This document shows positions 1 to 44,645 of a stretch of 64,000 nucleotides of DNA, piece after piece (within the stretch, counting starts at the first letter, position 1; every line of letters begins with the position of its first letter). The translations under genes were made by a program, and so were the position numbers. The stretch lies in the NCBI RefSeq assembly GCF_055900595.2, contig NZ_CM148325.1; one strand, 5' to 3'. The notes under the pieces are model-generated. The model was not told where the DNA came from. It saw only the letters and a list, made by a program, of their open reading frames with translations, and did not search any database.

Positions 1-83
1 TTACTACGATTGGTTTGGTTGGGTCTGGAAGGATTTGCTGTACTGCGTGAATAGCGTTTTGCTGATGTGCTGGAGATCGAATT

Positions 84-296
84 TCAAAGGTCAGTTTTTT
101 CATGACTTCCCTCTCTAACAGATTTCAGGTTATTCCACTCCGTTACCGCACTGCGATAATTCGCGGCCGCCACAGCAGCGTGGTTAGCGCAGTAGATTTG
201 GCACCCGTTCTCCATGTCGAATATTGTCGGTGATTTTCCGCATTTACATTTTTTGGCACGCGGTGCGTCTGAACACATTCCGTTAACGGTGTCCAT
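84..296 (-). CDS. Hypothetical Cys-rich small protein (nin-region position)
   Basis: 70-aa ORF downstream of replication genes, several Cys pairs; no family recognised. Confidence 0.4.
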   Translation of the reverse strand: MDTVNGMCSDAPRAKKCKCGKSPTIFDMENGCQIYCANHAAVAAANYRSAVTEWNNLKSVREGSHEKTDL

Positions 297-320
297 TAGG
301 ATCCCCCTAGTTCTTAATCC

Positions 321-350
321 AATAAAAAAGGGCTACTGTGTAAATAGCCC
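321..350 (-). terminator. Putative rho-independent terminator (tR2-like position)
   Basis: Hairpin GGGCTA...TAGCCC (330..350) followed on the minus strand by a T-run. Confidence 0.35.
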
Positions 351-381
351 CTGTTATTAGCCCAGTGATGTAGATGGTCAT

Positions 382-2262
382 TTAATACTCCGTCACGTTT
401 TCCTGTCGCCACGCCTCGTCATATTCCGATTTCGGCATATTGGCGATGTAGCTATATGGCGATCCTGATTCAAGTTGCAGGAACTGGTGCGATTGCTCGT
501 CAAGGAACAACGGGACACCACCTTCCCAACCTTCGCCGTTACGTTGTTTTTCAAGCATCAAAACAGATGCCGGAGATGCCAGTAGCTGTTCGTCCTTCTC
601 TGACATCTTTTCACCACTCTGAACTCTCTGTAACGCTCTCTCGCGAGCCTTGTTACGCCAGATGATGAAAAGGTTGTCTGTCAGGTCTGTTATCGCTCCA
701 GAGCCTTTTACGTCCATTTTCCCGGTTGGTTTTTCTTCGCTGTCTCCTTTTCGCGAGTGAGTAACGAGAATGACGTGGGAGTTTGTTTTGTTTTTGAAGT
801 CGCAAATCGAGTCAACAAACGCCTTCTGCCCGTTATAGTCATCGTCGCCTATGCCACATTTCATCAGGCTGTCGATGATGAATAACTGGATCCCGTATCG
901 GCGGCGAGCGTAGTCGAATATTTCGATCAGCCTGTCGGCTTTCGCCGTTCCGGTCAGGCCAAACACCCAGAGTCTTTCGTCATAAAATTTAAATGCAGAG
1001 TCAATTTCCAGCACTGGCGGCATCTTGCAGCACGTTGCCTGACGGGTAAGGCGCTTAAGGAGAATACCAGGCTTCAGCTCAAGTGACGCGATGCACGTCT
1101 TCACACCCTGACGCATTGCCTCAAGTGCCATATGCCCGACAACCTCCGTTTTTCCGTGACCGTTCACACCATTGACCAGCGTCAACTCGGCCTCACGGAA
1201 CTGGAATTTATCTGCCAGAGATTCCCACGGTGGATTAAACAGATACTGCTGCTTGCCGTAGAAAGCGTTGATAGTGTCCTGGTAAAACTCTCGCGCGCTG
1301 TAGAGTTCTTCAGGATCGAAGTAGGATGCCGTGCCAATGTACTGCCAGATTTCATCCTCGGTAACACCGTTCATCAGGCATTCGTTGATGTCTTTGTACG
1401 GCAGAGTAACAAGACGGCAACGATGTTCACCGAGTCGGCTTGCGATTTCCCTTGCGGCTTCACGACCAACATCATCAACGTCCATCGAGATGAATATTTC
1501 CTCAAACCTGTCGAGGTTGTGATACTCAAACTCAATCCACTGCTGCTTAGCGCCTTTCCCGCCACCAAACGGCACGGATAACGCCGAGATGCCGTATTGC
1601 GCATAGCTCATACAGTCAATTTCGCCTTCGCAAAGTACAACAGCCCTCACGCCAGCGTCCAGAGCCTGCCATCCGAACAGACAAGGTTCGCAATCACCTT
1701 CTGCCATAATGACTTTCTTCCCGTCCGGGCGCTCAGTGCTGATTCGCTTGACCTGCAACAACTCACCATCGCGTTTGTACGGAATCACCAGAGCATCCAG
1801 TTCCCGCTCTCCATTCCACACCTTGCCGCTGACAACCTCGTATCGCTTTACGATTTCTGGCGATATGCCACGCGATTGCAGGTACTCAAGATGGGATTCT
1901 GTTCTGGTAACGTAGCGGGCTATTTTCTTGCGATCAGGTCTGGAGAATTTCTTCTCACGTTTGGCATCGAAATGGTGATCGTCATCCTTGATACCGAGAA
2001 ATGCTTTCGCTTCCTGCATAGCCTGATGCAGGTTAATTCCACGACATGCCATCCACAAATCAAGCATGTCACCGCCGTCTCCCTCAGCGAAATCAGCCCA
2101 TTTTTTCTTGCCGCTAAGATTGACCTTAAGGCTGTTTCCCTTGTCACCGTTGACGTTACCGGCAACCCACTCATGCCCCTCTTTCTTGCCGTTTGGCAAC
2201 AGGTGCGGAGCCACCCTGTCAACCTGCGCCCAAAGCAGGTCGCTAAGTTCACTTGGCGTCAT
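382..2262 (-). CDS. Bifunctional DNA primase / replicative helicase (TOPRIM + DnaB-like ATPase)
   Basis: 626 aa; TOPRIM-like LCEGEIDCMS, Walker A GVNGHGKT, Walker B-like FIIDSL; sits where lambda P would be. Confidence 0.85.
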   Translation of the reverse strand: MTPSELSDLLWAQVDRVAPHLLPNGKKEGHEWVAGNVNGDKGNSLKVNLSGKKKWADFAEGDGGDMLDLWMACRGINLHQAMQEAKAFLGIKDDDHHFDAKREKKFSRPDRKKIARYVTRTESHLEYLQSRGISPEIVKRYEVVSGKVWNGERELDALVIPYKRDGELLQVKRISTERPDGKKVIMAEGDCEPCLFGWQALDAGVRAVVLCEGEIDCMSYAQYGISALSVPFGGGKGAKQQWIEFEYHNLDRFEEIFISMDVDDVGREAAREIASRLGEHRCRLVTLPYKDINECLMNGVTEDEIWQYIGTASYFDPEELYSAREFYQDTINAFYGKQQYLFNPPWESLADKFQFREAELTLVNGVNGHGKTEVVGHMALEAMRQGVKTCIASLELKPGILLKRLTRQATCCKMPPVLEIDSAFKFYDERLWVFGLTGTAKADRLIEIFDYARRRYGIQLFIIDSLMKCGIGDDDYNGQKAFVDSICDFKNKTNSHVILVTHSRKGDSEEKPTGKMDVKGSGAITDLTDNLFIIWRNKARERALQRVQSGEKMSEKDEQLLASPASVLMLEKQRNGEGWEGGVPLFLDEQSHQFLQLESGSPYSYIANMPKSEYDEAWRQENVTEY

Positions 2263-2366
2263 GATTCCCTCAGATTGAGATTTTTAAACCAGAAATCGAC
2301 AAATGAAATACTTAACCAGCCGTGGTTATAACCAGCGACCAGTAGCGATTTGATTTTTGATTTCAT
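2259..2366 (-). CDS. Possible 35-aa ORF coupled between initiator and primase-helicase
   Basis: ATG with AGGTGA SD; stop overlaps primase start (ATGA); below ORF-track cutoff. Confidence 0.25.
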   Translation of the reverse strand: MKSKIKSLLVAGYNHGWLSISFVDFWFKNLNLRES

Positions 2367-2369
2367 GGT

Positions 2370-3230
2370 TCACCTGTCGAAAAACACGTAGCCAGTTTTC
2401 GATACGGTGATTGCGGATGATGGTTTGGATTGTGGTTGAATGGTTTCTGGCTTTTCGTCGTTCCAGCGTTGACCGTTCAGGTAGCTCGATGGTAACAACC
2501 TGTCGAATCCGAACTGCTTACCATTCCTGCATGCGATGTCTTCTGCCAACATCGTGGCAAACTCGCTTGCCGTACCCCTGGTAGTTTTACGCCATTCCCT
2601 GAACTGTGTTCTGAATGCCGAAGCTGCGTTTTTCTTCCCGGCTTTCCGCATGCCTGCACACCAGAATATTTCCTCGAATGCCTTGTCGGTTTCTTCGTGA
2701 CGGTCAGGTGATTTTTCACACTCCGTCCGAACACTTTCGGACATAGTGTTTTTATTATTTCTTTTTTCTTTTGTAATAGTTTCTTTTGTGTGTCCCTGTT
2801 TTGGTGACAGCGCTGTCACCATTTTGGTGACACTTTTTGTCACCAATGCAGTGACATTATCACCAGAGTAGTGACACCCTTCGATTTGCCATTCCTCGAT
2901 GTTCTTGTTAGGCCCGATTTGCTGGCCTTCGCGAAGGATAACCTTCATCGCGATAAGCTCATTCTTGGCCTTGTTTACCTTCTGTCTTGGCAGCCTGGTA
3001 ATTTGAGCTAACTGACTATCAGAGATGCGATCCATCTTTTTACCGTAGCCGTATGTTTTACGGCATATGGCGTGGGCAACCTTGCTCTGATTTTTCGTTA
3101 AATCTGCGCCGATAAGCTCTTCATACAGGGCATTTGCAAGACGGGTATAACCATCTTCAACTTCTGCCACACGACGCTCCACAGGCCGTTGTGAAGGCCT
3201 TAAATGTGTTACGGTTGCAAGATTACTCAT
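2370..3230 (-). CDS. Replication initiator, lambda O-family N-terminal domain
   Basis: N-terminal region resembles lambda O (DGYxRL...ADLTK...KTYG...MDRIxDSQL...GPNKNI.EW); iterons lie inside the gene. Confidence 0.75.
2801..2880. repeat. Origin iterons (GGTGACA/TGTCACC repeats) with adjacent AT-rich tract
   Basis: At least 6 direct/inverted GTGACA motifs within 80 bp, flanked by AT-rich 2745..2790, in the initiator linker as in lambda ori. Confidence 0.55.
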
Positions 3231-3369
3231 GACCTTTCTCCTTCTGCATCAGCTTCACTTTTTCCAACTCAGCCCGGAATCGACCAGGCTGCTTGAAGCT
3301 GGACAGGAAGCGATCACGTAGTATGTGTTTGTGAATTTTGTCCTGGTAAGGACTGAGTTGTTTTGTCAT
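3223..3369 (-). CDS. Hypothetical basic 48-aa protein between cII and the initiator
   Basis: [18 protein letters not shown]... with AGGAG SD 6 nt upstream; 3-prime end overlaps initiator start. Confidence 0.4.
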
Positions 3370-3403
3370 AATTACTCCTGTGGATTGATCCAGTCTTTCT
3401 ACA

Positions 3404-3682
3404 TCAGGCCTCGAAGAATTCGCCGTTCTTCGGGGCTTTTTCTTTTGTCAGCATTCTGGCTACTTTCTTAGCCAGTTCCGCCAACTCCTCGTCTTCAACA
3501 CCCCATTCAAGAACAGCCAGAAGCATTCCCATTTTTGGGATGAAGCTGTCTTTCCATCGTGAAATTTGCGATTCATTAATCCCTAACGCGTCGGCCACCT
3601 TTCGCTGACCACGTACAGCAATTCGATTTAGGATGTTGCTTGTAATTGCATTCGCTTTCTTGCGAGTACTTGTAAGTTGCAT
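3404..3682 (-). CDS. cII: CII-like transcriptional activator
   Basis: Matches lambda CII core (SQISRWK...[10 protein letters not shown]). Confidence 0.8.
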
Positions 3683-3761
3683 ATGTAAGTATTTCCTTAG
3701 ATAACAATTGATTGAATGTATGCAAATAAATGCATACACCATAGGTGTGGTTTAATTTGAT

Positions 3762-3793
3762 GCCCTTTTTCAGGGCTGGGATGTGTAAGAGCG
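3762..3793 (-). promoter_or_regulatory. nutR (boxA + boxB)
   Basis: Minus strand reads boxA CGCTCTTACA then boxB GCCCTGAAAAAGGGC, between cro and cII. Confidence 0.65.
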
Positions 3794-3801
3794 GGAATGT
3801 C

Positions 3802-5154
<1,353 letters not shown>

Positions 5155-5179
5155 TCCCCACCTCAATCTCGATAACCAA

Positions 5180-5220
5180 AAACAAACTATTTTTCATTTA
5201 AAAACAATGGAGTTTGTTTT
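5180..5220 (+). terminator. Possible terminator of the immunity transcript
   Basis: Inverted repeat AAACAAACT...AGTTTGTTT followed by T-rich sequence; large loop, weak. Confidence 0.3.
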
Positions 5221-5240
5221 TCACGCCCCTTTTTACAATA

Positions 5241-5283
5241 TTTCTTGTTTACAACATACAATCTTTCTTGTAATTTTAAGCCA
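5241..5283 (+). promoter_or_regulatory. pL-like promoter with left operators
   Basis: TTTACA, 17 bp, TAATTT upstream of a lambda-pL-like transcript start; two TTTCTTGT operator repeats overlap. Confidence 0.5.
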
Positions 5284-5315
5284 TCAGCAGGACGCACTGA
5301 CCACCATGAAGGTGA

Positions 5316-5346
5316 GGCTCTTAAAAATTAAGCCCTGAAGAAGGGC
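5316..5346 (+). promoter_or_regulatory. nutL (boxA + boxB)
   Basis: GGCTCTTAA then GCCCTGAAGAAGGGC, as in lambda nutL. Confidence 0.8.
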
Positions 5347-5544
5347 AGCATTCAAAGCAGAAGGCTTTGGGATTGGATGAATGAGCAGGCTGATGCTCGA
5401 CCAATGTATAAACAGCGCTCATGGCAAGCAGTAACCAATCTGCGCCTCAAGACAGCGTCACTGGTAGTGCGGGCGCTCTAACCAGTAAGCCGGGGTTCAG
5501 CGCCGGCCATCCAATCACCAAAGCTAACTGACAGGAGAATCCAG

Positions 5545-5877
5545 ATGGATGCACAAACACGCCGCCGCGAACGTCGCGCAGAGAAACAGGCTCAATGGAA
5601 AGCAGCAAATCCCCTGTTGGTTGGGGTAAGCGCAAAACCAGTTAACCGCCCTATTCTCTCGCTGAATCGCAAACCGAAATCACGAGTAGAAAGCGCACTG
5701 AATCCGATAGACCTTACGGTGCTGGCTGAATACTACGAACAGATTGAAAGCAACCTGCAACGTATTGAGCGCAAGAATCAGCGCACATGGTACAGCAAGC
5801 CACGGAGTGAAATGGGTGTGACATGCTCAGGCCGCCAGAAGCAACGCGGAAAATCAATTCCGGCTTATTACGATTGA
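5545..5877 (+). CDS. N: Antiterminator N
   Basis: MDAQTRRRERRAEKQAQWKAANPLL..., Arg-rich motif, near-identical to lambda N over most of its length. Confidence 0.92.
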   Translation: MDAQTRRRERRAEKQAQWKAANPLLVGVSAKPVNRPILSLNRKPKSRVESALNPIDLTVLAEYYEQIESNLQRIERKNQRTWYSKPRSEMGVTCSGRQKQRGKSIPAYYD

Positions 5878-5885
5878 GGTGAGAT

Positions 5886-6137
5886 ATGGAATTTCATGAA
5901 AGTGCGATTTGTGATTTTCGCGCTAACGCAAATTCAGTAAAACCACAGCCAATTGCAGTTCTTTTTAAAACAATGGGAGCGTGGGCTGTTTTATGCTTCG
6001 CCTCTGACGACACTGATGCAAGAATGGCAATAGGCCAAGAGATGGAGATGGACCCGACAAACGATGAATTCATAATTTATGGCGCTCCATCTAATTACTT
6101 ACTTGATACCTGCAACATTTACAACAAGGCTGCCTGA
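5886..6137 (+). CDS. Hypothetical protein (83 aa)
   Basis: ORF with GAGGTGAG SD immediately after N. Confidence 0.5.
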   Translation: MEFHESAICDFRANANSVKPQPIAVLFKTMGAWAVLCFASDDTDARMAIGQEMEMDPTNDEFIIYGAPSNYLLDTCNIYNKAA

Positions 6138-6196
6138 TGGTGGCCTTTATTTTTTTGCCGTAAATAATTTCATGATTATTACAATCAAGGTGATAT

Positions 6197-6385
6197 ATGA
6201 AACGTAAATTTGAAATTTGGTTGGATTCCGGAGCAAACATTCACTCTTGCAAAAAGACAGTTGTAACACTCGATGATCTTGGCTTATCCGAGAATGAGTG
6301 GAATGAAATGGATCAGGACGAAAAAGACGAAAACATGCGTGATGTAGCATTTGAAACGCTTGATTGGGGATGGAAGGAAATTTAA
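6197..6385 (+). CDS. Hypothetical small acidic protein (62 aa)
   Basis: ORF with AGGTGA SD; Asp/Glu-rich C-terminal half; followed by a terminator hairpin. Confidence 0.55.
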   Translation: MKRKFEIWLDSGANIHSCKKTVVTLDDLGLSENEWNEMDQDEKDENMRDVAFETLDWGWKEI

Positions 6386-6390
6386 GTGAT

Positions 6391-6416
6391 GGCCGCATAG
6401 TCGGCCTTTATTTTTG
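6391..6416 (+). terminator. Rho-independent terminator
   Basis: GGCCG-CATA-GTCGGCC hairpin followed by T-run. Confidence 0.45.
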
Positions 6417-6624
6417 GCATAAACAACAGAATAAACACAGCACTGTGTATTCATTCCAACGAGTGAATACACGGAGCAATGTCGCTCGTAACTAAACAGG
6501 AGCCGACTTGTTCTGATTATTGGAAATCTTCTTTGCCCTCCGATGTGAGGGCTTTTTTATATGCATACCAATAACGCTTCACTCGAGGCGTTTTCGTTAT
6601 GCAATCAAACAGAAGGAGCATCCT

Positions 6625-6795
6625 ATGCAACAGTTCGCTATTGCAGGGGCGGCATCGGTTCGCCCTTTCAACCCGATTTTATCGGTACAGCATTCACGAA
6701 AAAATATTTTAACCGGAGCAGACTTTAAACAACCAAGAATGAAAAGTTTGCTCGAAAAGCTTTGGGATATTTTGAAACAACAAGGCCGTCCATGA
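6625..6795 (+). CDS. cIII: CIII-like protein (FtsH inhibitor family)
   Basis: MQQFAIAGA... and SLLEKLWDILKQ resemble lambda CIII; AAGGAG SD. Confidence 0.6.
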   Translation: MQQFAIAGAASVRPFNPILSVQHSRKNILTGADFKQPRMKSLLEKLWDILKQQGRP

Positions 6796-6950
6796 GTTTT
6801 ACGGATAACTGGTCAGACGAAGAATTCATTCGTCAGATGAAAGAATTAATCGGTAACGAAGGAGATATTCATGTCACTTGCAACCACAGTGAAGGAGAGC
6901 AAGTTACAGAGACGCATGTACACGCAGAAAGCTCTCTGGTATCGCCATAA
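6792..6950 (+). CDS. Hypothetical small protein (52 aa)
   Basis: ATG overlaps cIII-like stop (ATGA). Confidence 0.4.
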   Translation: MSFTDNWSDEEFIRQMKELIGNEGDIHVTCNHSEGEQVTETHVHAESSLVSP

Positions 6951-7049
6951 TGGCGACCGCGAAGGAATGCGGGTATGCCTTAATTTGTCCCGAGTCGAAG
7001 TATTAAATCAGCGTTATTTCCTTGGGCCATGTCCATTCTGAGGTGATTT

Positions 7050-7757
7050 ATGGATTTGAATAAATTCGATGAGCCATTCAGCCCTGAAGATATCGAATGG
7101 CGAATACAGCAAAGCGGTAAAACACGCGATGGCAAAGTGTGGGCTATGGTGCTGGCTTATGTCACGAACCGGGCAATCATGAAACGCCTGGACGATGTTT
7201 GCGGCAAAGCAGGATGGCGCAATGAATACCGCGATATTCCCAACAACGGCGGAGTTGAATGCGGCATATCAATCAAGATTGATTCCGAATGGGTAACCAA
7301 ATGGGATGCCGCTGAAAACACGCAGGTAGAAGCCGTCAAAGGTGGTCGTTCCGGTGCAATGAAGCGCGCTGCCGTTCAGTGGGGAATCGGTCGGTATCTG
7401 TATAACCTTGAGGAAGGTTTTGCACAAACATCTCTCGATAAAAAGCAGGGATGGCACAGGGCAAAACTCAAGGATGGAACAGGATTTTACTGGCTCCCTC
7501 CATCGCTGCCGGGATGGGCAATCCCAGCATCAGATAACAAACCATCACCAGAAAATACCAACCAGAAATCTCCATCGGTTGACTGCGAACAAATCCTGAA
7601 AGACTTCAGCGATTATGCGTCAACAGAAACTGACAAGAAAAAACTCATCGAGCGTTATCAGCGTGACTGGCAATTAATGGCTGGCAACGAGGAGGCGCAG
7701 GCTAAATGCGTTCAGGTAATGAACATCAGAGTTAACGAACTAAAACAGGCGGCATAA
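7050..7757 (+). CDS. Single-strand annealing protein (Rad52/Sak-like)
   Basis: Motif KGGRSGAMKRAAVQWGIGRYLY typical of Rad52-type annealases; sits where lambda bet would be. Confidence 0.7.
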   Translation: MDLNKFDEPFSPEDIEWRIQQSGKTRDGKVWAMVLAYVTNRAIMKRLDDVCGKAGWRNEYRDIPNNGGVECGISIKIDSEWVTKWDAAENTQVEAVKGGRSGAMKRAAVQWGIGRYLYNLEEGFAQTSLDKKQGWHRAKLKDGTGFYWLPPSLPGWAIPASDNKPSPENTNQKSPSVDCEQILKDFSDYASTETDKKKLIERYQRDWQLMAGNEEAQAKCVQVMNIRVNELKQAA

Positions 7758-8225
7758 ATGTCTCACTTGGACGGAATTATTAAAAGATTCGAGTCCAGCT
7801 ACAAAGTTAATGAAACAACAGGTTGCTGGGAGTCTACCTATTCAAAAAACAAAGGAGGATACACAAAATTTGTAGCCTTTGGCGTAACAATGCTTTCTCA
7901 TCGGGTTGCTTTTGAGCTTTATCACTCCCCCATTCCATCTGGGAAGATGGTTTGCCACAAATGCGATAACCCATGCTGCGTTAATCCTGAACATCTCTTT
8001 TTAGGTAGCGCGCAAGAAAACATGGACGACAAGATAGCAAAAGGAAGGCATCGTGGAGCCAAGAAAGGTCATGCTCATCATGGTGCAAAATTAACAGAGT
8101 GGCAGGTTATAGAAATTAGGAAAAGACTCTCTGAAAAAGAGAGTCAGTACAAGATAGCAAAAGACATGGGTGTATCTCAATCAATTATAAGCAACATAAA
8201 AACTGGCAAGAGGTGGAGCAAATGA
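7758..8225 (+). CDS. HNH endonuclease with C-terminal HTH
   Basis: HRVAFELYH...[23 protein letters not shown] motif. Confidence 0.8.
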
Positions 8226-8728
8226 GTTCTCGCGGGATAAATAAGGTGATTATTCTTGGTCGGGTAGGACAAGACCCGGAAGTTCGATACTCACCATCAG
8301 GAACAGCGTTCGCTAACCTGACAATAGCCACGTCAGAACAATGGCGAGATAAAAATACTGGCGAGCAAAAGGAATTGACTGAATGGCATCGTGTTGCTGT
8401 ATCCGGGAAACTGGCTGAGGTCGTGGGGCAGTATGTGAAAAAAGGTGATCAGATTTATTTCGAGGGAATGCTGAGAACCAGAAAGTGGAAAGACCAGTCA
8501 GGGCAAGACCGTTACACAACCGAGGTTCATGTCGGAATTAATGGTGTGATGCAAATGCTTGGCGGCATTGGCGACAGCAAACAACAAGCATCCAGCAGGC
8601 AATCACAGAAGCCACAGCAGCAATCATCACCAGCACAACACAACGAACCTCCGATGGATTTTGACGACGATATACCCTTTGCACCAGTAACTCTCCCCTT
8701 CCCTCGTCACGCTATTCACGCAATTTAA
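8222..8728 (+). CDS. ssb: Single-stranded DNA-binding protein (phage SSB) with C-terminal extension
   Basis: OB-fold N-terminus, Gln/Pro-rich linker, DDDIPF motif followed by 15 extra residues. Confidence 0.9.
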
Positions 8729-8741
8729 TCAGGAGAAAATC

Positions 8742-9035
8742 ATGCCAGCGCCTCAGTATGGTGCGGATGACCCGCGCCGCTGTTCCGGCAATTCCGTATC
8801 GGAGGTGCTGGATAAATTCAGAAAAAACTACGACCTGATAATGTCGCTACCGCAGGAAACGAAAGAGGAAAAGGAATTTCGCCATTGTATATGGCTTGCA
8901 GAGAAAGAAGAACGCGAGCGAATTTACCAGACATCAATCCGACCATTCCGCAAAGCCACATATACCCACTTCCCTGAAATTGACCCGCGCCTGCGTAATT
9001 ACCGCTCACGCTATGGCGCTATCAGTAATGACTGA
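8742..9035 (+). CDS. Hypothetical protein
   Basis: 97-aa ORF with CAGGAG SD. Confidence 0.5.
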
Positions 9036-9045
9036 GGAATTTACC

Positions 9046-9210
9046 ATGAGAGGACTTGCATACAATCCCGGCATTCTTCCGGCAGAAATGATTATTCGCC
9101 AACGCGTAAAGCCAATGCCATCGAGAGAGGAATTGCTTAAGAGAAATTCTTTTCCATCAGTGTATCAAAACAAATATCTGAATGCAATGTGGCGGAGTGG
9201 GAAGAAATGA
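9046..9210 (+). CDS. Hypothetical small protein
   Basis: Internal ATG with GAGGAA SD; start uncertain (alternative ATG at 9028). Confidence 0.35.
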
Positions 9211-9626
9211 AACAAATGTCACTAATTGAGATGGATGGATTTCTGAAAGGTAAATGCATCCCAAGTGATTTAAAGGTTAACGAAACAAACGCTGATTATC
9301 TGGTGCGTAAATTTGCTGAAGCGGAGGCCAAGTGCGCGGCGCTTGCGGCGGAGAATGAGCTGGCTCGTAAGGCAGTTCAGGCATTCTGCGATGTTGTTGG
9401 CGACAACACCGAGGTTATCGCTGAGGTGGTTGGGCGAGATGGCGTTCTGGTTATTTTGGAGGCCATGAAGGCAACAGGAAATATGCCAGCCACCGATGCT
9501 TTTCTGGCTGAAGTACGGGCGCAGGGTGTTGAATTGTTGCGCGAGCATCCTGCTATCCAGATTTGCTCTTTAACGCACGTATGCGACGAGTTCGCCGCCC
9601 AGCTTCGTCAGGGGGAAGCGGTATGA
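9207..9626 (+). CDS. Hypothetical protein
   Basis: ATGA overlap with upstream ORF; start uncertain. Confidence 0.5.
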
Positions 9627-9940
9627 GCATAGTTGATGATTCACATCTTACAGACGAAGTGGTTAACGCCGCTTTCGAAGGTACCAATTTCGGGCGCACT
9701 GATTTCCGCACCATTCTGGCAGAAACAGTTATGAAGCGTGCTGCTGGCTATCACTCTGGCTACACGGCAACGACTATCTGTATTCGCCTGGGATTGCTTG
9801 GCAAACACGATCGCCCGACAAAACTCGGCCTGACCTTCGCTTTCCATCACTACTACAGGCCATGCGTTCGCGAAGCGCTGATTTCGCATAACAGCCTTGA
9901 AGTATGGGCAAAACTTGGAGCACAGGAGTCCGCCAAATGA
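9623..9940 (+). CDS. Hypothetical protein
   Basis: ATGA overlap with upstream ORF. Confidence 0.5.
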   Translation: MSIVDDSHLTDEVVNAAFEGTNFGRTDFRTILAETVMKRAAGYHSGYTATTICIRLGLLGKHDRPTKLGLTFAFHHYYRPCVREALISHNSLEVWAKLGAQESAK

Positions 9941-10224
9941 GCAACATCAACAAACAGGCGCTGATTGCAAAAATCAAAAAGCAGGCCGAAAGCTTCGACA
10001 CAGTGGTGTTGAGAGAGGATGAAGCTAACGCGCTGCTGGATGAGCTGGAAGCAGCAGAGAAGCGGATTGCTGAACTGGAAGCGCGGGAAATACTGCTCCC
10101 GGAACGTAGCAGCATGCTTCATCGAACAGATTTTCACGATGATTACCAAACGGTAATGGCATACAAAGTTTCTGAAGTCATCGATGCAATCCGCGCCGCT
10201 GGCATTCGTATCAAAGGAGAGTGA
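9937..10224 (+). CDS. Hypothetical coiled-coil protein
   Basis: ATGA overlap; heptad-like LDELEAAEKRIAELEARE. Confidence 0.5.
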   Translation: MSNINKQALIAKIKKQAESFDTVVLREDEANALLDELEAAEKRIAELEAREILLPERSSMLHRTDFHDDYQTVMAYKVSEVIDAIRAAGIRIKGE

Positions 10225-10225
10225 T

Positions 10226-10447
10226 ATGGCTAACTCATTACTTGAAACCTGCAACAACTGGCAGATTCAGAGGGCGGAGATTTTATCTCGCAATCCAGAT
10301 ATGGCAATGACAATTGATAATCTGGACACGCTAATTGAACGGACCGTGCGTTCTGCAATTGATATAGCACATCGAGTGGATTGGGATTTCAGAGAAGCGG
10401 AGCGACTTGCTAAAGAGCAGGCGAAAGCAGCGGGTAAAGGAGAGTGA
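10226..10447 (+). CDS. Hypothetical protein
   Basis: ATG after conserved AAAGGAGAGTGAT junction. Confidence 0.45.
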   Translation: MANSLLETCNNWQIQRAEILSRNPDMAMTIDNLDTLIERTVRSAIDIAHRVDWDFREAERLAKEQAKAAGKGE

Positions 10448-10448
10448 T

Positions 10449-10646
10449 ATGGATAAAAACACCACTGCTTACTGGAGTCTTTCACTTGATACCGAATGTC
10501 CCAAATGCGGCCACAATTTCGATCTGCTTTGCGATGCTGATTTCTGGGAATTTTCTGGAGCAAAACAGGCATGTGAAGAAATAAAAGGTTACGAAACATG
10601 CTGCCCAGAATGTAACCATGAATTTAAAACAGATTTTGTGTATTGA
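10449..10646 (+). CDS. Hypothetical zinc-ribbon protein
   Basis: CPKCG...CCPECN; same AAAGGAGAGTGAT junction upstream. Confidence 0.5.
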   Translation: MDKNTTAYWSLSLDTECPKCGHNFDLLCDADFWEFSGAKQACEEIKGYETCCPECNHEFKTDFVY

Positions 10647-10656
10647 GGCATAACGA

Positions 10657-11466
10657 ATGACCACTTTTACTAAAGAACAATTAATAGAGATAATTAAGCG
10701 CAATATAACGGTTATGGATCGTTATCCTGATTTAGTAACTGCACAAATGGATCTGGAAGTATACAAAATTGCGCTGGCATCACTGGAAGCAGAACCAGTT
10801 GCTTATATTTTCAAACATCCGGCCGGGAAATTATTCTGGGCTTTAACGGATGAAAGCAATAAAGAGCAACCGGACGTTATTCCTGTTTATGCTGACTCAC
10901 CTGCGCCGGTTGTGCCGGATGAAATAGACGTAAACGATGTACCAAGGGCGGTGACATATTTCAAGACACACAGAGATTGTTACGCAGATGGCTGGAACGC
11001 CTGCCGCGCCGCCATGCTTCAGTCCGGAAACTTTCGGGAAAACAAGAATTCGTCAACCAATAATTTTCGGGAAATCGCGGAAACGTCAACCAACTATCCG
11101 GTAATTCCTAGTGAGGTGTTGTCCGCAATCCTGAAGGTTGCCAAGATTCGTGCCGATTTCGATGATTTTGACGGTGACAGGCGAGGTATCGGTGATTGTC
11201 TGGATGAGGCTGAGCAAGAGCTTATCGTTACCATTAACAAATATGCCAGTCAGTTGGCAGCAGAACCGATAGCGACTAATGACGTTCGAGAGCAAACAGC
11301 CGTTCCGCCAGTTCCTGTAATACAGGCTGATGTCGCGCAGGCAATTGAAAAACTCAAACGGAAATTAGTGGAATGCAATCGCTATAACTACTGCGCAGAT
11401 GCAGTTAAGGGCGTTGAGTATGCCTGCCACGCTGCCACGCTGCCACGCTGCCATGCTTCAGGGTAG
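10657..11466 (+). CDS. Hypothetical protein (269 aa)
   Basis: Long ORF; 3-prime end carries the CTGCCACG tandem repeat. Confidence 0.55.
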   Translation: MTTFTKEQLIEIIKRNITVMDRYPDLVTAQMDLEVYKIALASLEAEPVAYIFKHPAGKLFWALTDESNKEQPDVIPVYADSPAPVVPDEIDVNDVPRAVTYFKTHRDCYADGWNACRAAMLQSGNFRENKNSSTNNFREIAETSTNYPVIPSEVLSAILKVAKIRADFDDFDGDRRGIGDCLDEAEQELIVTINKYASQLAAEPIATNDVREQTAVPPVPVIQADVAQAIEKLKRKLVECNRYNYCADAVKGVEYACHAATLPRCHASG

Positions 11467-11857
11467 CCAACCTGTAAGCCAAACTTACAAGTTTCCAGTT
11501 AATACACCTTGCCAGGATGCGCCAGCCCATATCTGGCTGCAAACAGCTGGAGTATGGCCAGAAGATGGCGAGTTAAGCGAATTAACGTGGTGCAGCCACA
11601 ATCAGCACCATGATGACACGCTATATGTTCGAGCTGACTTGGTAAATGGCAATTCTCCGGTAACTCCGGATGGTTGGATAAGCTGTAGTGATCGAATGCC
11701 AAACGAAGAAGATGTTTTGGTTTATTGCTCAGACACTAAAGAGCAGATGGTAGGGTTTCACAAAGGTAAAGGGTTATTTCAATTCTTTTACATGAATGGT
11801 GTTGAGGGGGTATGTGAGCCGTCACACTGGATGCCGCTACCAGAGCCTCCACTTTGA
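11399..11857 (+). CDS. Phage protein with DUF551-like C-terminus; start uncertain (ATG at 11399, 11420 or 11453)
   Basis: C-terminal W.PLPEPP-type motif; no convincing SD at any candidate start. Confidence 0.5.
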   Translation: MQLRALSMPATLPRCHAAMLQGSQPVSQTYKFPVNTPCQDAPAHIWLQTAGVWPEDGELSELTWCSHNQHHDDTLYVRADLVNGNSPVTPDGWISCSDRMPNEEDVLVYCSDTKEQMVGFHKGKGLFQFFYMNGVEGVCEPSHWMPLPEPPL

Positions 11858-11953
11858 AAGCGAAGCTTATACATATCTTTTACATCAGCAATCTATTGTT
11901 AATCTCCAATCAATGTTACGTTGTCATCTCACTCATGCTTTGGAGGTAGTGAT

Positions 11954-12133
11954 ATGTCTTGTCCAAAATGCGGTTCTGGAAATATTGCAAAAGAAAAAAC
12001 AATGCGTGGATGGTCTGGTGATTATGTGTGCTGCGATTGCGGATACAACGACTCTAAAGACGCATTTGGAGAGCGTGGTAAAAACGAGTTTGTCAAAATT
12101 AATAAAGATCGCGAAGGCAACGGAAAAAGCTAA
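11954..12133 (+). CDS. Hypothetical zinc-ribbon protein
   Basis: CPKCG...CCDCG; GGAGG SD. Confidence 0.5.
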   Translation: MSCPKCGSGNIAKEKTMRGWSGDYVCCDCGYNDSKDAFGERGKNEFVKINKDREGNGKS

Positions 12134-12198
12134 TTTATTTATTCATATATGAAAACAATGTAACCAATATTCGAATTGAAGAACTGAAAGAACACCAA

Positions 12199-12220
12199 GC
12201 CGCCTGATGGCGGTTTTTTC
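12199..12220 (+). terminator. Rho-independent terminator upstream of xis
   Basis: GCCGCC-TGAT-GGCGG hairpin followed by TTTTTT. Confidence 0.45.
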
Positions 12221-12246
12221 TTGCGTGTAATTGCGGAGACTTTGCG

Positions 12247-12465
12247 ATGTACTTGACACTTCAGGAGTGGAACGCACGCCAGCGACGCCCAAGAAGCCTT
12301 GAAACAGTTCGTCGATGGGTACGCGAGTGCAGGATATTCCCTCCTCCGGTTAAGGATGGAAGAGAGTATCTGTTCCACGAATCAGCGGTAAAGGTTGACT
12401 TAAATCGACCAGTAACAGGTAGCCTTTTGAAGAGGATCAGAAATGGGAAGAAGGCGAAGTCATGA
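12247..12465 (+). CDS. xis: Excisionase
   Basis: 72 aa, MYLTLQEWNARQRRPRSLETVRRW..., lambda Xis. Confidence 0.92.
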   Translation: MYLTLQEWNARQRRPRSLETVRRWVRECRIFPPPVKDGREYLFHESAVKVDLNRPVTGSLLKRIRNGKKAKS

Positions 12466-13513
12466 GCGCCGGGATTTACCCCCTAACCTTTATATAAGAA
12501 ACAATGGATATTACTGCTACAGGGACCCAAGGACGGGTAAAGAGTTTGGATTAGGCAGAGACAGGCGAATCGCAATCACTGAAGCCATACAGGCCAACAT
12601 TGAGTTATTTTCAGGACACAAACACAAGCCTCTGACAGCGAGAATCAACAGTGATAATTCCGTTACGTTACATTCATGGCTTGATCGCTACGAAAAAATC
12701 CTGGCCAGCAGAGGAATCAAGCAGAAGACACTCATAAATTACATGAGCAAAATTAAAGCAATAAGGAGGGGTCTGCCTGATGCTCCACTTGAAGACATCA
12801 CCACAAAAGAAATTGCGGCAATGCTCAATGGATACATAGACGAGGGCAAGGCGGCGTCAGCCAAGTTAATCAGATCAACACTGAGCGATGGATTCCGAGA
12901 GGCAATAGCTGAAGGCCATATAACAACAAACCCTGTCGCTGCCACTCGCGCAGCAAAATCAGAGGTAAGGAGATCAAGACTTACGGCTGACGAATACCTG
13001 AAAATTTATCAAGCAGCAGAATCATCACCATGTTGGCTCAGACTTGCAATGGAACTGGCTGTTGTTACCGGGCAACGAGTTGGTGATTTATGCGAAATGA
13101 AGTGGTCTGATATCGTAGATGGATATCTTTATGTCGAGCAAAGCAAAACAGGCGTAAAAATTGCCATCCCAACAGCATTGCATGTTGATGCTCTCGGAAT
13201 ATCAATGAAGGAAACACTTGATAAATGCAAAGAGATTCTTGGCGGAGAAACCATAATTGCATCTACTCGTCGCGAACCGCTTTCATCCGGCACAGTATCA
13301 AGGTATTTTATGCGCGCACGAAAAGCATCAGGTCTTTCCTTCGAAGGGGATCCGCCTACCTTTCACGAGTTGCGCAGTTTGTCTGCAAGACTCTATGAGA
13401 AGCAGATAAGCGATAAGTTTGCTCAACATCTTCTCGGGCATAAGTCGGACACCATGGCATCACAGTATCGTGATGACAGAGGCAGGGAGTGGGACAAAAT
13501 TGAAATCAAATAA
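12443..13513 (+). CDS. int: Tyrosine integrase, lambda Int
   Basis: 356 aa; N-terminal arm-binding region and catalytic domain as in lambda Int; overlaps xis. Confidence 0.95.
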   Translation: MGRRRSHERRDLPPNLYIRNNGYYCYRDPRTGKEFGLGRDRRIAITEAIQANIELFSGHKHKPLTARINSDNSVTLHSWLDRYEKILASRGIKQKTLINYMSKIKAIRRGLPDAPLEDITTKEIAAMLNGYIDEGKAASAKLIRSTLSDGFREAIAEGHITTNPVAATRAAKSEVRRSRLTADEYLKIYQAAESSPCWLRLAMELAVVTGQRVGDLCEMKWSDIVDGYLYVEQSKTGVKIAIPTALHVDALGISMKETLDKCKEILGGETIIASTRREPLSSGTVSRYFMRARKASGLSFEGDPPTFHELRSLSARLYEKQISDKFAQHLLGHKSDTMASQYRDDRGREWDKIEIK

Positions 13514-13586
13514 TGATTTTATTTTGACTGATAGTGACCTGTTCGTTGCAACAAATTGATAAGCAATGCTTTTTTATAATGCCAAC

Positions 13587-13601
13587 TTAGTATAAAAAAG
13601 C
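13587..13601. other. Lambda att core (prophage-host junction, BOP-prime type) with int-proximal P-prime arm at 13514..13586
   Basis: Reverse complement reads GCTTTTTTATACTAA; flanking arm reads like lambda P-prime arm. Confidence 0.8.
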
Positions 13602-14946: not shown

Positions 14947-15150
<204 letters not shown>

Positions 15151-39080: not shown

Positions 39081-39432
39081 GAATAGCAAAAAAGCGCCTT
39101 TAGGGCGCTTTTTTTACATTGGTGGGTCGTGCAGGATGACTCGCTTCGCTCGCCCTTCGGGCCGTCGCCGCGAGCGGCTCCGTTGTTTCGCTACGCTCAA
39201 CTCGAACCTGCTGCAGGTTCGAATCTTTGAATATCCCAGATAGCAAAAAAGCGCCTTTAGGGCGCTTTTTTACATTGGTGGGTCGTGCAGGATGACTCGC
39301 TTCGCTCGCCCTTCGGGCCGTCGCCGCGAGCGGCTCCGTTGTTTCGCTACGCTCAACTCGAACCTGCTGCAGGTTCGAATCTTTGAATATCCCAGATAGC
39401 AAAAAAGCGCCTTTAGGGCGCTTTTTTTACAT
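39081..39432. repeat. Tandem ~156-bp repeats downstream of the tRNA operon, each with a terminator hairpin and a tRNA-Lys 3-prime-end fragment
   Basis: AAAAAAGCGCCTTTAGGGCGCTTTTTT plus TGGTGGGTCGTGCAGGATGACTCG... repeated with period ~156 bp. Confidence 0.6.
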
Positions 39433-39508
39433 TGGTGGGTCGTGCAGGATTCGAACCTGCGACCAATTGATTAAAAGTCAACTGCTCTACCAACTGAGCT
39501 AACGACCC
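39433..39508 (-). tRNA. lysQ: tRNA-Lys (UUU)
   Basis: 76-nt match to tRNA-Lys, anticodon loop CTTTTAA, CCA encoded. Confidence 0.9.
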
Positions 39509-39862: not shown

Positions 39863-39938
39863 TGGTGGGTCGTGCAGGATTCGAACCTGCGACCAATTGA
39901 TTAAAAGTCAACTGCTCTACCAACTGAGCTAACGACCC
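39863..39938 (-). tRNA. lysY: tRNA-Lys (UUU)
   Basis: Identical 76-nt tRNA-Lys copy. Confidence 0.9.
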
Positions 39939-39941
39939 GAG

Positions 39942-40017
39942 TGGTGGGTGATGACGGGATCGAACCGCCGACCCCCTCCTTGTAAGGGAGGTGCTCTCCC
40001 AGCTGAGCTAATCACCC
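39942..40017 (-). tRNA. valZ: tRNA-Val (UAC)
   Basis: 76-nt tRNA, anticodon TAC. Confidence 0.9.
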
Positions 40018-40068
40018 GATACTGCGCTGGATACTACAAACTACTTCCACCGAACCCACCGTAATTAG

Positions 40069-40144
40069 TGGTGGGTCGTGCAGGATTCGAACCTGCGACC
40101 AATTGATTAAAAGTCAACTGCTCTACCAACTGAGCTAACGACCC
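40069..40144 (-). tRNA. lysW: tRNA-Lys (UUU)
   Basis: Identical 76-nt tRNA-Lys copy. Confidence 0.9.
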
Positions 40145-40146
40145 GG

Positions 40147-40222
40147 TGGTGGGTGATGACGGGATCGAACCGCCGACCCCCTCCTTGTAAGGGAGGTGCT
40201 CTCCCAGCTGAGCTAATCACCC
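40147..40222 (-). tRNA. valT: tRNA-Val (UAC)
   Basis: 76-nt tRNA, anticodon TAC. Confidence 0.9.
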
Positions 40223-40357
40223 GATACTGCGCTGGATACTACAACTAACTAGGTTAGTGGTGGGTCGTGCAGGATGACTCGACTTCGTCTCGCCCTTCGG
40301 GCCGTTGCTGACGCAACGTTATCCTTCACGTTTTACTACCGCTTCCACCTTAGCGAT

Positions 40358-43379: not shown

Positions 43380-44645
43380 TTACGGTTTGAAGTCCAATGG
43401 CGCATTTTTGAACACTTCATATACTGCCTGGCTTGGTGGTTTCGGGATCTTCGCAAGTTTAGCTGCTGCCAACGCAGCCTGACAAAGTGCGGGATCGCCA
43501 CCTTCAGGTTTGATATCCAGTAACATACCATCGGGTGCCAGTTTTATGCGCAGCGTACAGGTCTTGCCTGCATAGGACGATGCGTCATAGAACTTACTTT
43601 CGATAGCAGATTTAATCTGCCCGGCATAGTTATTGATATCGGCCCCTGATGCGCCATTGTTTTTAGTATTACCACTCCCGGCAGGCGAAGCATTGTTCCC
43701 TTTCGCCCCTCCCCCCGTTTTCGGTGCATTCTTACCAGAGCTTAGCTCACCGAAAATATCATCTGCCTCTGCGGCAGCTTTTGCTGCAGCGGCTTTTTCA
43801 GCTGCAGCTTTTGCCGCTGCCGCTTTTTTGTCTGCGGCGGCTTTTTCTGCCGCTGCTTTCTTATCAGCTGCTGCCTTTTCAGCAGCCGCTTTTTCTGCTG
43901 CTTTTTTGTCGGCTGCAGCTTTCTCTGCCGCTGCTTTCTTATCAGCTGCAGCCTTTTCAGCAGCCGCTTTCTTCTCAGCTTCTGCCTTGGTTTTTTCAGC
44001 AGCTTCAGTTGCCGCTTTTTTTCTTGCTTCAGCTGCAGCTGCTTCTGCCGCTTCCGCTTTCTTCTTCAGCGCCGCAGCGGCTGCTTCGGCTTTTTTCTGC
44101 GCTTCGGCTGCGGCTTTGGCGGCTTCTGCTTCTGCTTTTTTCTTCGCGTCTGCAGCCGCTTTCTTCGCTGCTTCTTCCGCAGCTTTTGCATCCGCTTCAG
44201 CCTTCGCTTTAGCATCTGCCGCCGCTTTCGCTGCCGCCTCTTCCGCTTGCTTCTGCTTTAACTCGGCCTGTTTTGCGGCTTCTTCAGCCTGCTTTTTCTG
44301 CTCCTGAGCCGCTAACCGCTCTTTCTCAAGTTGCTTCAGGCGTTCCTGTTCAGCCGCTTGTTTCTCACGCAGTTCTTCCGCAGCCTGCTGTTCCTTCATC
44401 TTGCGCTGCTCATCAGAACGCTTCGCGCTTGATTCCTGGCTTTGCATGCGTTTGTACTGCTCAACTACCGCACCTGAATCAACCATTACAGCGTCGATGG
44501 ACGAACCACCGCCGCCTCCGGCTGAAGCTTCTATATTCTCATCGAACGAACTCCAGATCAGCGCCGCAAATAAGATGACATGCAGCACTGCTGAAATAAT
44601 TATCGCCCGCTTGAGCTTGTCGTTTTGTTCGGTTGCCTTTGACAC
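43380..44645 (-). CDS. tolA: Tol-Pal system protein TolA
   Basis: N-terminal TM, long Ala/Lys/Glu-rich helical domain II, C-terminal domain III. Confidence 0.9.
   Translation of the reverse strand: MSKATEQNDKLKRAIIISAVLHVILFAALIWSSFDENIEASAGGGGGSSIDAVMVDSGAVVEQYKRMQSQESSAKRSDEQRKMKEQQAAEELREKQAAEQERLKQLEKERLAAQEQKKQAEEAAKQAELKQKQAEEAAAKAAADAKAKAEADAKAAEEAAKKAAADAKKKAEAEAAKAAAEAQKKAEAAAAALKKKAEAAEAAAAEARKKAATEAAEKTKAEAEKKAAAEKAAADKKAAAEKAAADKKAAEKAAAEKAAADKKAAAEKAAADKKAAAAKAAAEKAAAAKAAAEADDIFGELSSGKNAPKTGGGAKGNNASPAGSGNTKNNGASGADINNYAGQIKSAIESKFYDASSYAGKTCTLRIKLAPDGMLLDIKPEGGDPALCQAALAAAKLAKIPKPPSQAVYEVFKNAPLDFKP

Follow-up and report, generated by a model that had tools for sequence, protein, structure and literature searches.

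The window (the whole 64-kb stretch of DNA analyzed) carried a frameshifted allele of one modular eaA-like/DUF551 accessory gene, because fused full-length homologues were the norm for this gene, which normally encoded about 394 to 412 aa. The window allele encoded a 269-aa protein devoid of DUF551 plus an orphan DUF551 ORF, and the two were parted at an array of three units of the octanucleotide CTGCCACG (the number of these units is given as n below), the length of which set the reading frame. The site was very probably a slippage-prone coding VNTR in a non-essential gene: the tract grew from a proto-repeat CTGCCACG-CTGCCATG within the 'ACHAAMLQ' joint of the protein; a single CTGCCACG unit is stable, and an expanded tract gains and loses 8-bp units, very probably by replication slippage; tracts of one, four, or seven units give a protein of ~400 aa, and those of two or three units give a frameshift. 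To judge from the distribution of alleles, which was the only guide to the direction (4 to 3 versus 3 to 4), the window allele most likely arose from an in-frame n=4 allele by losing one unit. Since the covalent link to DUF551 was lost, the function of the gene was most likely lost or altered in the window prophage, and one further slip could reverse this; the two halves might still work separately, and switching by the tract may possibly represent adaptive phase variation.

Split gene and octanucleotide array

Table 1. Coordinates of the split gene, its two ORFs, its module joints, and its repeat array in the window
Feature	Position	Strand	Remark
Whole disrupted gene, modular eaA-like/DUF551 accessory gene	10657..11857	+	In-silico variants; intact natural alleles
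ORF1, 269 aa, N-terminal and middle modules	10657..11466	+	Tail out of frame, ending with CHAATLPRCHASG before the stop
ORF2, 152 aa, orphaned C-terminal part with DUF551	11399..11857	+	+1 frame
Motif 1 DNA (A-C-R-A-A-M-L-Q), upstream joint copy	10999..11022	+	Megablast hits break nearby, at query position ~330
Motif 2 DNA (A-C-H-A-A-[TLPRCHAA]-M-L-Q), downstream joint copy	11422..11461	+	Contains the array; phage and genome hits break there
Optional in-frame middle cassette (SGNFRENKNSS...EYACHAAMLQ)	11023..11461	+	Between the motif copies; missing in single-motif alleles
Octanucleotide array	11424-11457	.	3 x CTGCCACG + CTGCCATG + CT; slippage tract, length sets the reading frame

Three perfect CTGCCACG units, read directly in the sequence, occupied 11424-11447 and were followed by CTGCCATG (11448-11455) as an imperfect fourth unit, and a trailing CT completed the array. 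Tandem Repeats Finder gave a period of 8 bp, 4.2 copies, and 96% matches, and the 24-mer made up of three CTGCCACG units had 0 matches in 100 dinucleotide-preserving shuffles. The array lay in coding sequence, its 8-bp unit was not a multiple of three, and every other short-period tandem repeat of the 64-kb window had a period divisible by three. The other tandem repeats of the window were ordinary chromosomal features: (i) a 92-bp repeat (2.1 copies) just past ybhC at 14947-15141, (ii) repeats of 156 bp and 205 bp within the cluster of Lys/Val tRNA genes (39083-39450; 39863-40244), and (iii) in-frame 15/33-bp repeats in tolA at 43769-44247.

ORF1 was closed by a TAG at 11464-11466, just past the array, and the +1 frame of ORF2 was open from 11369. 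ORF2 matched Pfam DUF551 (PF04448) over aa 92-151 (E = 6e-19; 69.1 bits versus a cut-off of 22), which placed the domain at about 11672-11851; ORF1 had no match in Pfam, and its exact product occurred in public data as P0002. When the gene was rebuilt in silico with different numbers of CTGCCACG units, n=1, 4, and 7 gave a single ORF of 394, 402, and 410 aa, respectively, and n=0, 2, 3, 5, and 6 gave truncations; the window allele was 16 bp longer than n=1 and 8 bp shorter than n=4. The homology search returned thousands of relatives, of which fused full-length proteins of 390-427 aa were the usual form, and some single full-length fused sequences recurred on 30-60 contigs. Intact homologues existed, and the indel was not divisible by three. 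An earlier note on this DNA had placed three tandem CTGCCACG copies at the ORF junction, and both direct reading and Tandem Repeats Finder bore this out; its description of the junction was correct except for the imperfect fourth unit CTGCCATG, which had been overlooked. Its proposal that an ancestral single gene had been split here agreed with related genomes, which showed one ORF of about 394-412 aa, and its expectation that a change of one 8-bp unit would fuse or separate the ORFs held for the in-silico series and for natural alleles; copy number was not invariant across related genomes, n=1, 2, 3, 4, and 7 all being found.

Automated annotation mishandled even intact alleles. RefSeq/PGAP left unannotated the intact ORFs of 402 aa in E. 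coli EC332 (L001 3001-4209) and of 396 aa in plasmid pCombat11I9-3 (L003 3001-4191), and it gave there instead a 'partial DUF551 pseudogene' in mid-gene plus a DUF551 CDS of 134-136 aa that began at the internal AAMLQ methionine. Because PGAP started such CDSs inside intact ORFs, many short 'DUF551 proteins' in databases (for example, P0028, 134 aa, 19 contigs) were probably annotation artefacts of intact genes.

Copy-number alleles in public sequences

Alleles with n=1, 2, 3, 4, and 7 occurred naturally and were aligned as one series, all five lying on almost identical DNA: (i) n=1 in pCombat11I9-3 (L003), with its intact 396-aa ORF; (ii) n=2 in L010 and L014-L017; (iii) n=3 in the window, in L002 (strain 90-1, split like the window), in L018, and in L019; (iv) n=4 in EC332 (L001), with its intact 402-aa ORF at the same ybhC-integrase site, and in L011 (intact, 415 aa); and (v) n=7 in L020, the DNA of which read as 7 x CACG + CATG and the intact 412-aa product of which (P0086) had a different C-terminal tail. 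ON (n=1, 4, 7) and OFF (n=2, 3) alleles were thereby both represented in nature.

The survey of 5,426 complete E. coli genomes gave 58 records spanning both flanks, with n=1 in ~53, n=2 in two, n=3 in one, and n=4 in two; many of the n=1 records had flanks 100% identical to those of the window. The n=1 state was also found in 22 of the 23 PLSDB plasmid records. Because >90% of carriers had n=1, with only two imperfect units, the gene family as a whole did not maintain the tract. A query composed of eight units plus one flank detected no further expanded alleles in 337 right-flank and 450 left-flank records; the JGI metagenomes gave 0 expanded alleles, a zero that says little because the n=1 pattern was on just 7 contigs there; and the one-genome-per-species scan gave a single n=1 match, in Escherichia sp. 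MOD1-EC7003. Rows H164-H171, taken up as candidates for further expanded alleles, were rejected as single-motif genes whose motif-1 DNA aligned partly to the synthetic repeat. The IMG/VR contigs with at least two CTGCCACG units (L004-L007) were rejected as homologues, being unrelated intergenic arrays on GC-rich viral contigs. These arrays of the same octamer had 8-9 units in L005/L006 (IMGVR_UViG_3300033076_000880) and L007 (IMGVR_UViG_2922130491_000001) and three in L004; they lay apparently between genes and had no homology to the split gene.

The products predicted for the window haplotype were looked up exactly in a collection of 15 billion proteins: (i) the 270-aa product of n=2 was found on 9 contigs (P1-like plasmids); (ii) the 269-aa product of n=3 was found on 2 contigs, plus a 250-aa form of strain 90-1 on 5 contigs; (iii) the 402-aa product of n=4 was found on 11 contigs; and (iv) the products of n=5, 6, and 7 (278, 277, and 410 aa, respectively) had no match on the window haplotype. 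The in-frame insertion of n=4 (ATLPRCHA) turned up beside three or more different N-terminal modules and three or more DUF551 tails, both in E. coli and in Salmonella Virchow; n=4 is therefore an established allele, spread by recombination.

Copy number differed between near-identical genomes, and n=2, 3, 4, and 7 were found on the same protein haplotype. L018 (GCA_050484865.1, n=3) and EC332 (n=4) were one unit apart, with 0 mismatches in 7,384 bp, and this identical stretch took in host ybhC and ybhJ. The window prophage differed from that of EC332 by one SNP (12891) plus one unit in about 13.6 kb, and the remaining 37 mismatches all lay within host ybhC. In the gal region, a divergence of ~4% separated the window host from EC332 (host flank about 96% identical; 1-13600 versus 13758-64000), and 9 of 5,424 complete E. 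coli genomes matched the window gal region at 99% or more. A near-identical prophage next to a ~96% identical host flank points to near-identical phage having recently lysogenized very different E. coli lineages, that of the window host being rare. In strain 90-1 (L002 1873-2853), the IS5-family element ISKpn26 lay upstream and replaced the first ~13 bases of the gene; the n=3 allele of this strain matched the window at every one of 1,022 bp but resided in another prophage, a decayed one at torI.

L019 (Logan SRR22575581, 3327-3358) had four perfect CTGCCACG units and no CTGCCATG, the total length being that of the window allele, and its array had lost the AAMLQ methionine codon from the downstream frame (ATG to ACG); since four CACG units without a CATG unit must have arisen in a different register, L019 is an independent event. 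An n=2 allele was also found on a diverged cassette (10 SNPs plus a 3-bp indel), and a second n=2 truncation was found on the P0017 haplotype. None of the truncation products of n=0, 2, or 3 turned up for P0068 and P0132, two abundant n=1 haplotypes (63 and 31 contigs, respectively), and frameshifted forms occurred only on haplotypes that also had expanded alleles. The lack of truncations on abundant n=1 haplotypes, set beside the variants on expanded ones, argues that instability depends on tract length, as replication slippage predicts, and that n=1 is stable. As n=1 has only two imperfect units and n=4 is in frame, the way from n=1 to n=4 would have passed through at least one out-of-frame intermediate, the frame being restored at least once.

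Module joints and genomic setting

The peptide CRAAMLQSG was encoded by 11002-11028 (ORF1) and CHAAMLQGS by 11441-11467 (ORF2). The DNA under the two AAMLQ peptides was identical at 22 of 24 positions, with GCCTGCCGCGCCGCCATGCTTCAG at 10999 and the same core at motif 2, and the 12-mer GCCATGCTTCAG was common to 11450-11461 and 11011-11022. Motif 1 was a poor tandem repeat (CTGCCGCG/CCGCCATG, 5 of 8 identical); relative to it, two substitutions in motif 2 converted CTGCCGCG-CCGCCATG (5/8) to CTGCCACG-CTGCCATG (7/8), which constituted a proto-repeat within the conserved 'ACHAAMLQ' module joint. Single-motif genes displayed an N-terminal sequence like that of the window up to GWNACRAAMLQ and then continued directly with GSQPVSQTYK...DUF551. 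Examples were the 263-aa protein of E. coli DEC5D and the 280-aa protein of E-1246, and the L009 and L008 proteins had this direct junction; the ~423-bp segment between the motif copies was absent from such alleles. The cassette matched the stand-alone family phrog_14306 (E = 9e-80), and BLAST hits from many phages and genomes broke exactly at the two motifs. The AAMLQ motif is therefore a conserved joint for module exchange, flanking an optional in-frame cassette.

The gene belonged to the early-left accessory genes of a lambdoid/P22-like prophage, which was integrated beside ybhC (lambda attachment region), and it stood between the recombination genes and xis-int. The near-identical prophage of EC332 displayed the order Rad52-family recombinase, HNH endonuclease, SSB, anti-RecBCD, ead/Ea22-like fragment, two small genes, the homologue of the split gene, Eag, excisionase, and integrase, followed by host ybhC. 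The right-hand part of the gene matched phage genes annotated EaA, and DUF551 in the mosaic exo-xis region has been described as a portable C-terminal domain whose function is not known (PMC10834534). The gene was also present on P1-like phage-plasmids, beside phd/doc (Fic), pol III theta, and DUF968. PHROGs matched three separate segments of the protein, aa 1-123, aa 111-262 (phrog_14306, a family of 177 aa), and aa 324-401 (DUF551), and all the families matched were labelled 'unknown function'; searches of the gene product for function gave no PADLOC, NCBIfam, or PDB match, and the AlphaFold2 model of the n=4 protein, built from a 49-sequence alignment, had a mean pLDDT of 42.9, too poor for use. 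Two small Cys-rich, zinc-ribbon-like ORFs flanked the gene at 10449-10646 and 11954-12133; the downstream one was annotated 'Eag protein' in EC332 and had a weak Pfam Lar_restr_allev match in L018.

Known systems and alternative explanations

The CTGG x3 frameshift hotspot in lacI of E. coli, reportedly described by Farabaugh et al. in 1978, is said to gain or lose one unit by slippage as the dominant spontaneous frameshift, reversibly. It resembles the array in having three tandem short units in an E. coli coding region, but it has a 4-bp unit in a chromosomal gene and no suggested function, whereas the split gene has an 8-bp unit, resides on mobile elements, and shows natural n of 1-7. In E. 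coli K1, the P22-like prophage CUS-3 bears the 'mobile contingency locus' neuO, which has 14-39 units of the heptanucleotide AAGACTC in essentially all carriers; about 1-2% of it switches within a few generations, with capsule O-acetylation as the phenotype (PMC8653822, which cites the Vimr/Deszo papers). Both are prophage accessory genes near the integrase end, with a coding repeat unit that is not a multiple of three, slipped-strand mispairing, and a full-length protein from some copy numbers only; unlike neuO, the split gene has 3-8 units, with n=1 in >90% of carriers, and its repeat lies at an internal module joint and not at the 5' end. The unit CTGCCACG, the internal position, and the DUF551 family all differ from the (AAGACTC)n O-acetyltransferase, so the likeness to neuO is one of analogy only.

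The contingency loci of T2 agt and T4 rIIA (Gomez, Barrick and Waters) are homopolymers of at least 6 bp in lytic phages, with a measured reversion about 10,000-fold over point mutation, and they have been proposed to diversify progeny against host defences (bioRxiv 10.1101/2025.10.21.683753). They and the array are alike frameshift sites inside phage genes, the T2/T4 sites being hypermutable and reversible, whereas the split gene has an octanucleotide and belongs to temperate phages and P1-like phage-plasmids. The Ea22/ead-family genes of the lambda exo-xis region (PMC10834534) share the region and the mosaic module swapping, but the work on them covers domain mosaicism and structure, with no frame-setting repeat, and the split gene is the neighbouring eaA-like gene, not Ea22.

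Several other readings of the split were weighed against that of a slippage-prone VNTR. Sequencing or assembly artefacts are scarcely credible as the source of the copy-number differences: repeats in general are prone to mis-assembly, with nothing specific to add in this case, but the differences were exact multiples of 8 bp, the tract (24-64 bp) was below any read length, and the alleles recurred in independent assemblies and sources (9 contigs carried n=2 and at least 11 carried n=4, and there were 4 contexts with n=3). It is highly improbable, too, that an insertion of foreign DNA split the gene and left the duplicated AAMLQ as its mark, as the earlier note supposed. The note was right that CRAAMLQSG recurs as CHAAMLQGS, both peptides being present, and the single-motif alleles do represent an indel polymorphism bounded by the 22/24-bp direct repeat; however, the cassette is in frame, both motif copies are also present in intact full-length genes of 394-412 aa, which refutes the insertion as the cause of the split, and the number of 8-bp units alone breaks the frame. 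ORF1 ends with GGG-TAG (11461-11466), where the glycine tRNA, by slipping +1 onto GGT, would enter the frame of ORF2 (GGT AGC CAA), and a ribosomal frameshift at this GGG-UAG (to GGU-AGC) might be imagined to yield full-length protein still from n=3. Such a frameshift has very little probability; the sequence coincidence at the ORF1 stop is all that speaks for it, whereas visual inspection showed no prfB-type stimulatory Shine-Dalgarno-like element at a suitable distance, nearly all homologues were single ORFs, and the two-frame layout with its shift site was not conserved across homologues. The two-ORF layout was confined to rare, recent n=2/n=3 alleles, and therefore no programmed frameshift signal can have evolved; the GGG-TAG layout is probably a coincidence. 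Functional gene fission, in which both halves would be made, the DUF551 half by coupling or re-initiation from ATG 11420, and the frameshift would be nearly neutral, is an improbable explanation. The protein is modular, as the separate PHROGs segments and the stand-alone family of the middle module indicate, its modules are shuffled among alleles, and the n=3 prophage, residing in two very different hosts, was apparently still transmissible; moreover, ATG 11420, the more plausible start of ORF2 and the equivalent of the one chosen by PGAP in strain 90-1, has TAAGGG 8 nt upstream and sits within ORF1, 44 nt ahead of its stop. Against this, the SD-like TAAGGG is also present in intact alleles, where the ATG is out of frame, so selection did not shape it as a start signal for ORF2; and database 'DUF551 proteins' of 134 aa are largely annotation calls within intact ORFs. 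The promoter/terminator scan around the junction gave nothing over the shuffled background and no internal promoter signal for ORF2.

An evolved contingency (phase-variation) locus, in which the tract would switch the DUF551 fusion ON and OFF at high frequency as a form of bet-hedging that might keep host defences from being triggered or might counter them, is unlikely. The lambdoid early-left region, where the gene lies just upstream of xis and int, is repressed in lysogens, which tells against such switching, as do the n=1 state of >90% of carriers, which have no real tract, and the shortness of the tracts (3-8 units versus 14-39 in neuO). ON and OFF alleles nevertheless occurred on identical backgrounds, the path from n=1 to n=4 would include at least one restoration of frame, and a tree that pairs EC332 (n=4) with L018 (n=3) and leaves the window (n=3) outside them calls for either one 3-to-4 restoration or two independent losses. 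Expanded in-frame and out-of-frame alleles were about equally common, on ~24 and ~20 contigs, respectively, with more in frame than the one-third expected from random length, although clonality makes this ratio unreliable, the contig counts not being phylogenetically independent and the event counts being minimum estimates. Precedents are neuO on CUS-3 (PMC8653822) and the homopolymer loci in T2/T4 (bioRxiv 10.1101/2025.10.21.683753). It is rather doubtful that the expanded tract serves temperate phages and P1-like phage-plasmids as a true mobile contingency locus, reversibly coupling DUF551 to its N-terminal modules and uncoupling it at high frequency to give mixed progeny.

Read as a slippage-prone coding VNTR, the mutable site is a new example of the well-known class of slipped-strand frameshift sites, real but modest. 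Sporadic slippage alone would explain a recurrent 'two-ORF' artefact in a common prophage/phage-plasmid gene, and the tract would provide a clean natural case of tract-length-dependent instability on E. coli mobile elements, stable at n=1 and unstable from n=2 upward. If switching is fast and selected, E. coli temperate phages would have here a multi-base contingency locus to set beside neuO, the second of its kind and the first within an early accessory gene; comparing naturally ON phages with naturally OFF ones would then give a route into DUF551 function. If the tract is a true contingency locus, progeny would differ in their interaction with host defence or takeover targets, and 'phage contingency loci' would extend from lytic homopolymers to multi-base repeats on temperate elements of E. 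coli and Salmonella.
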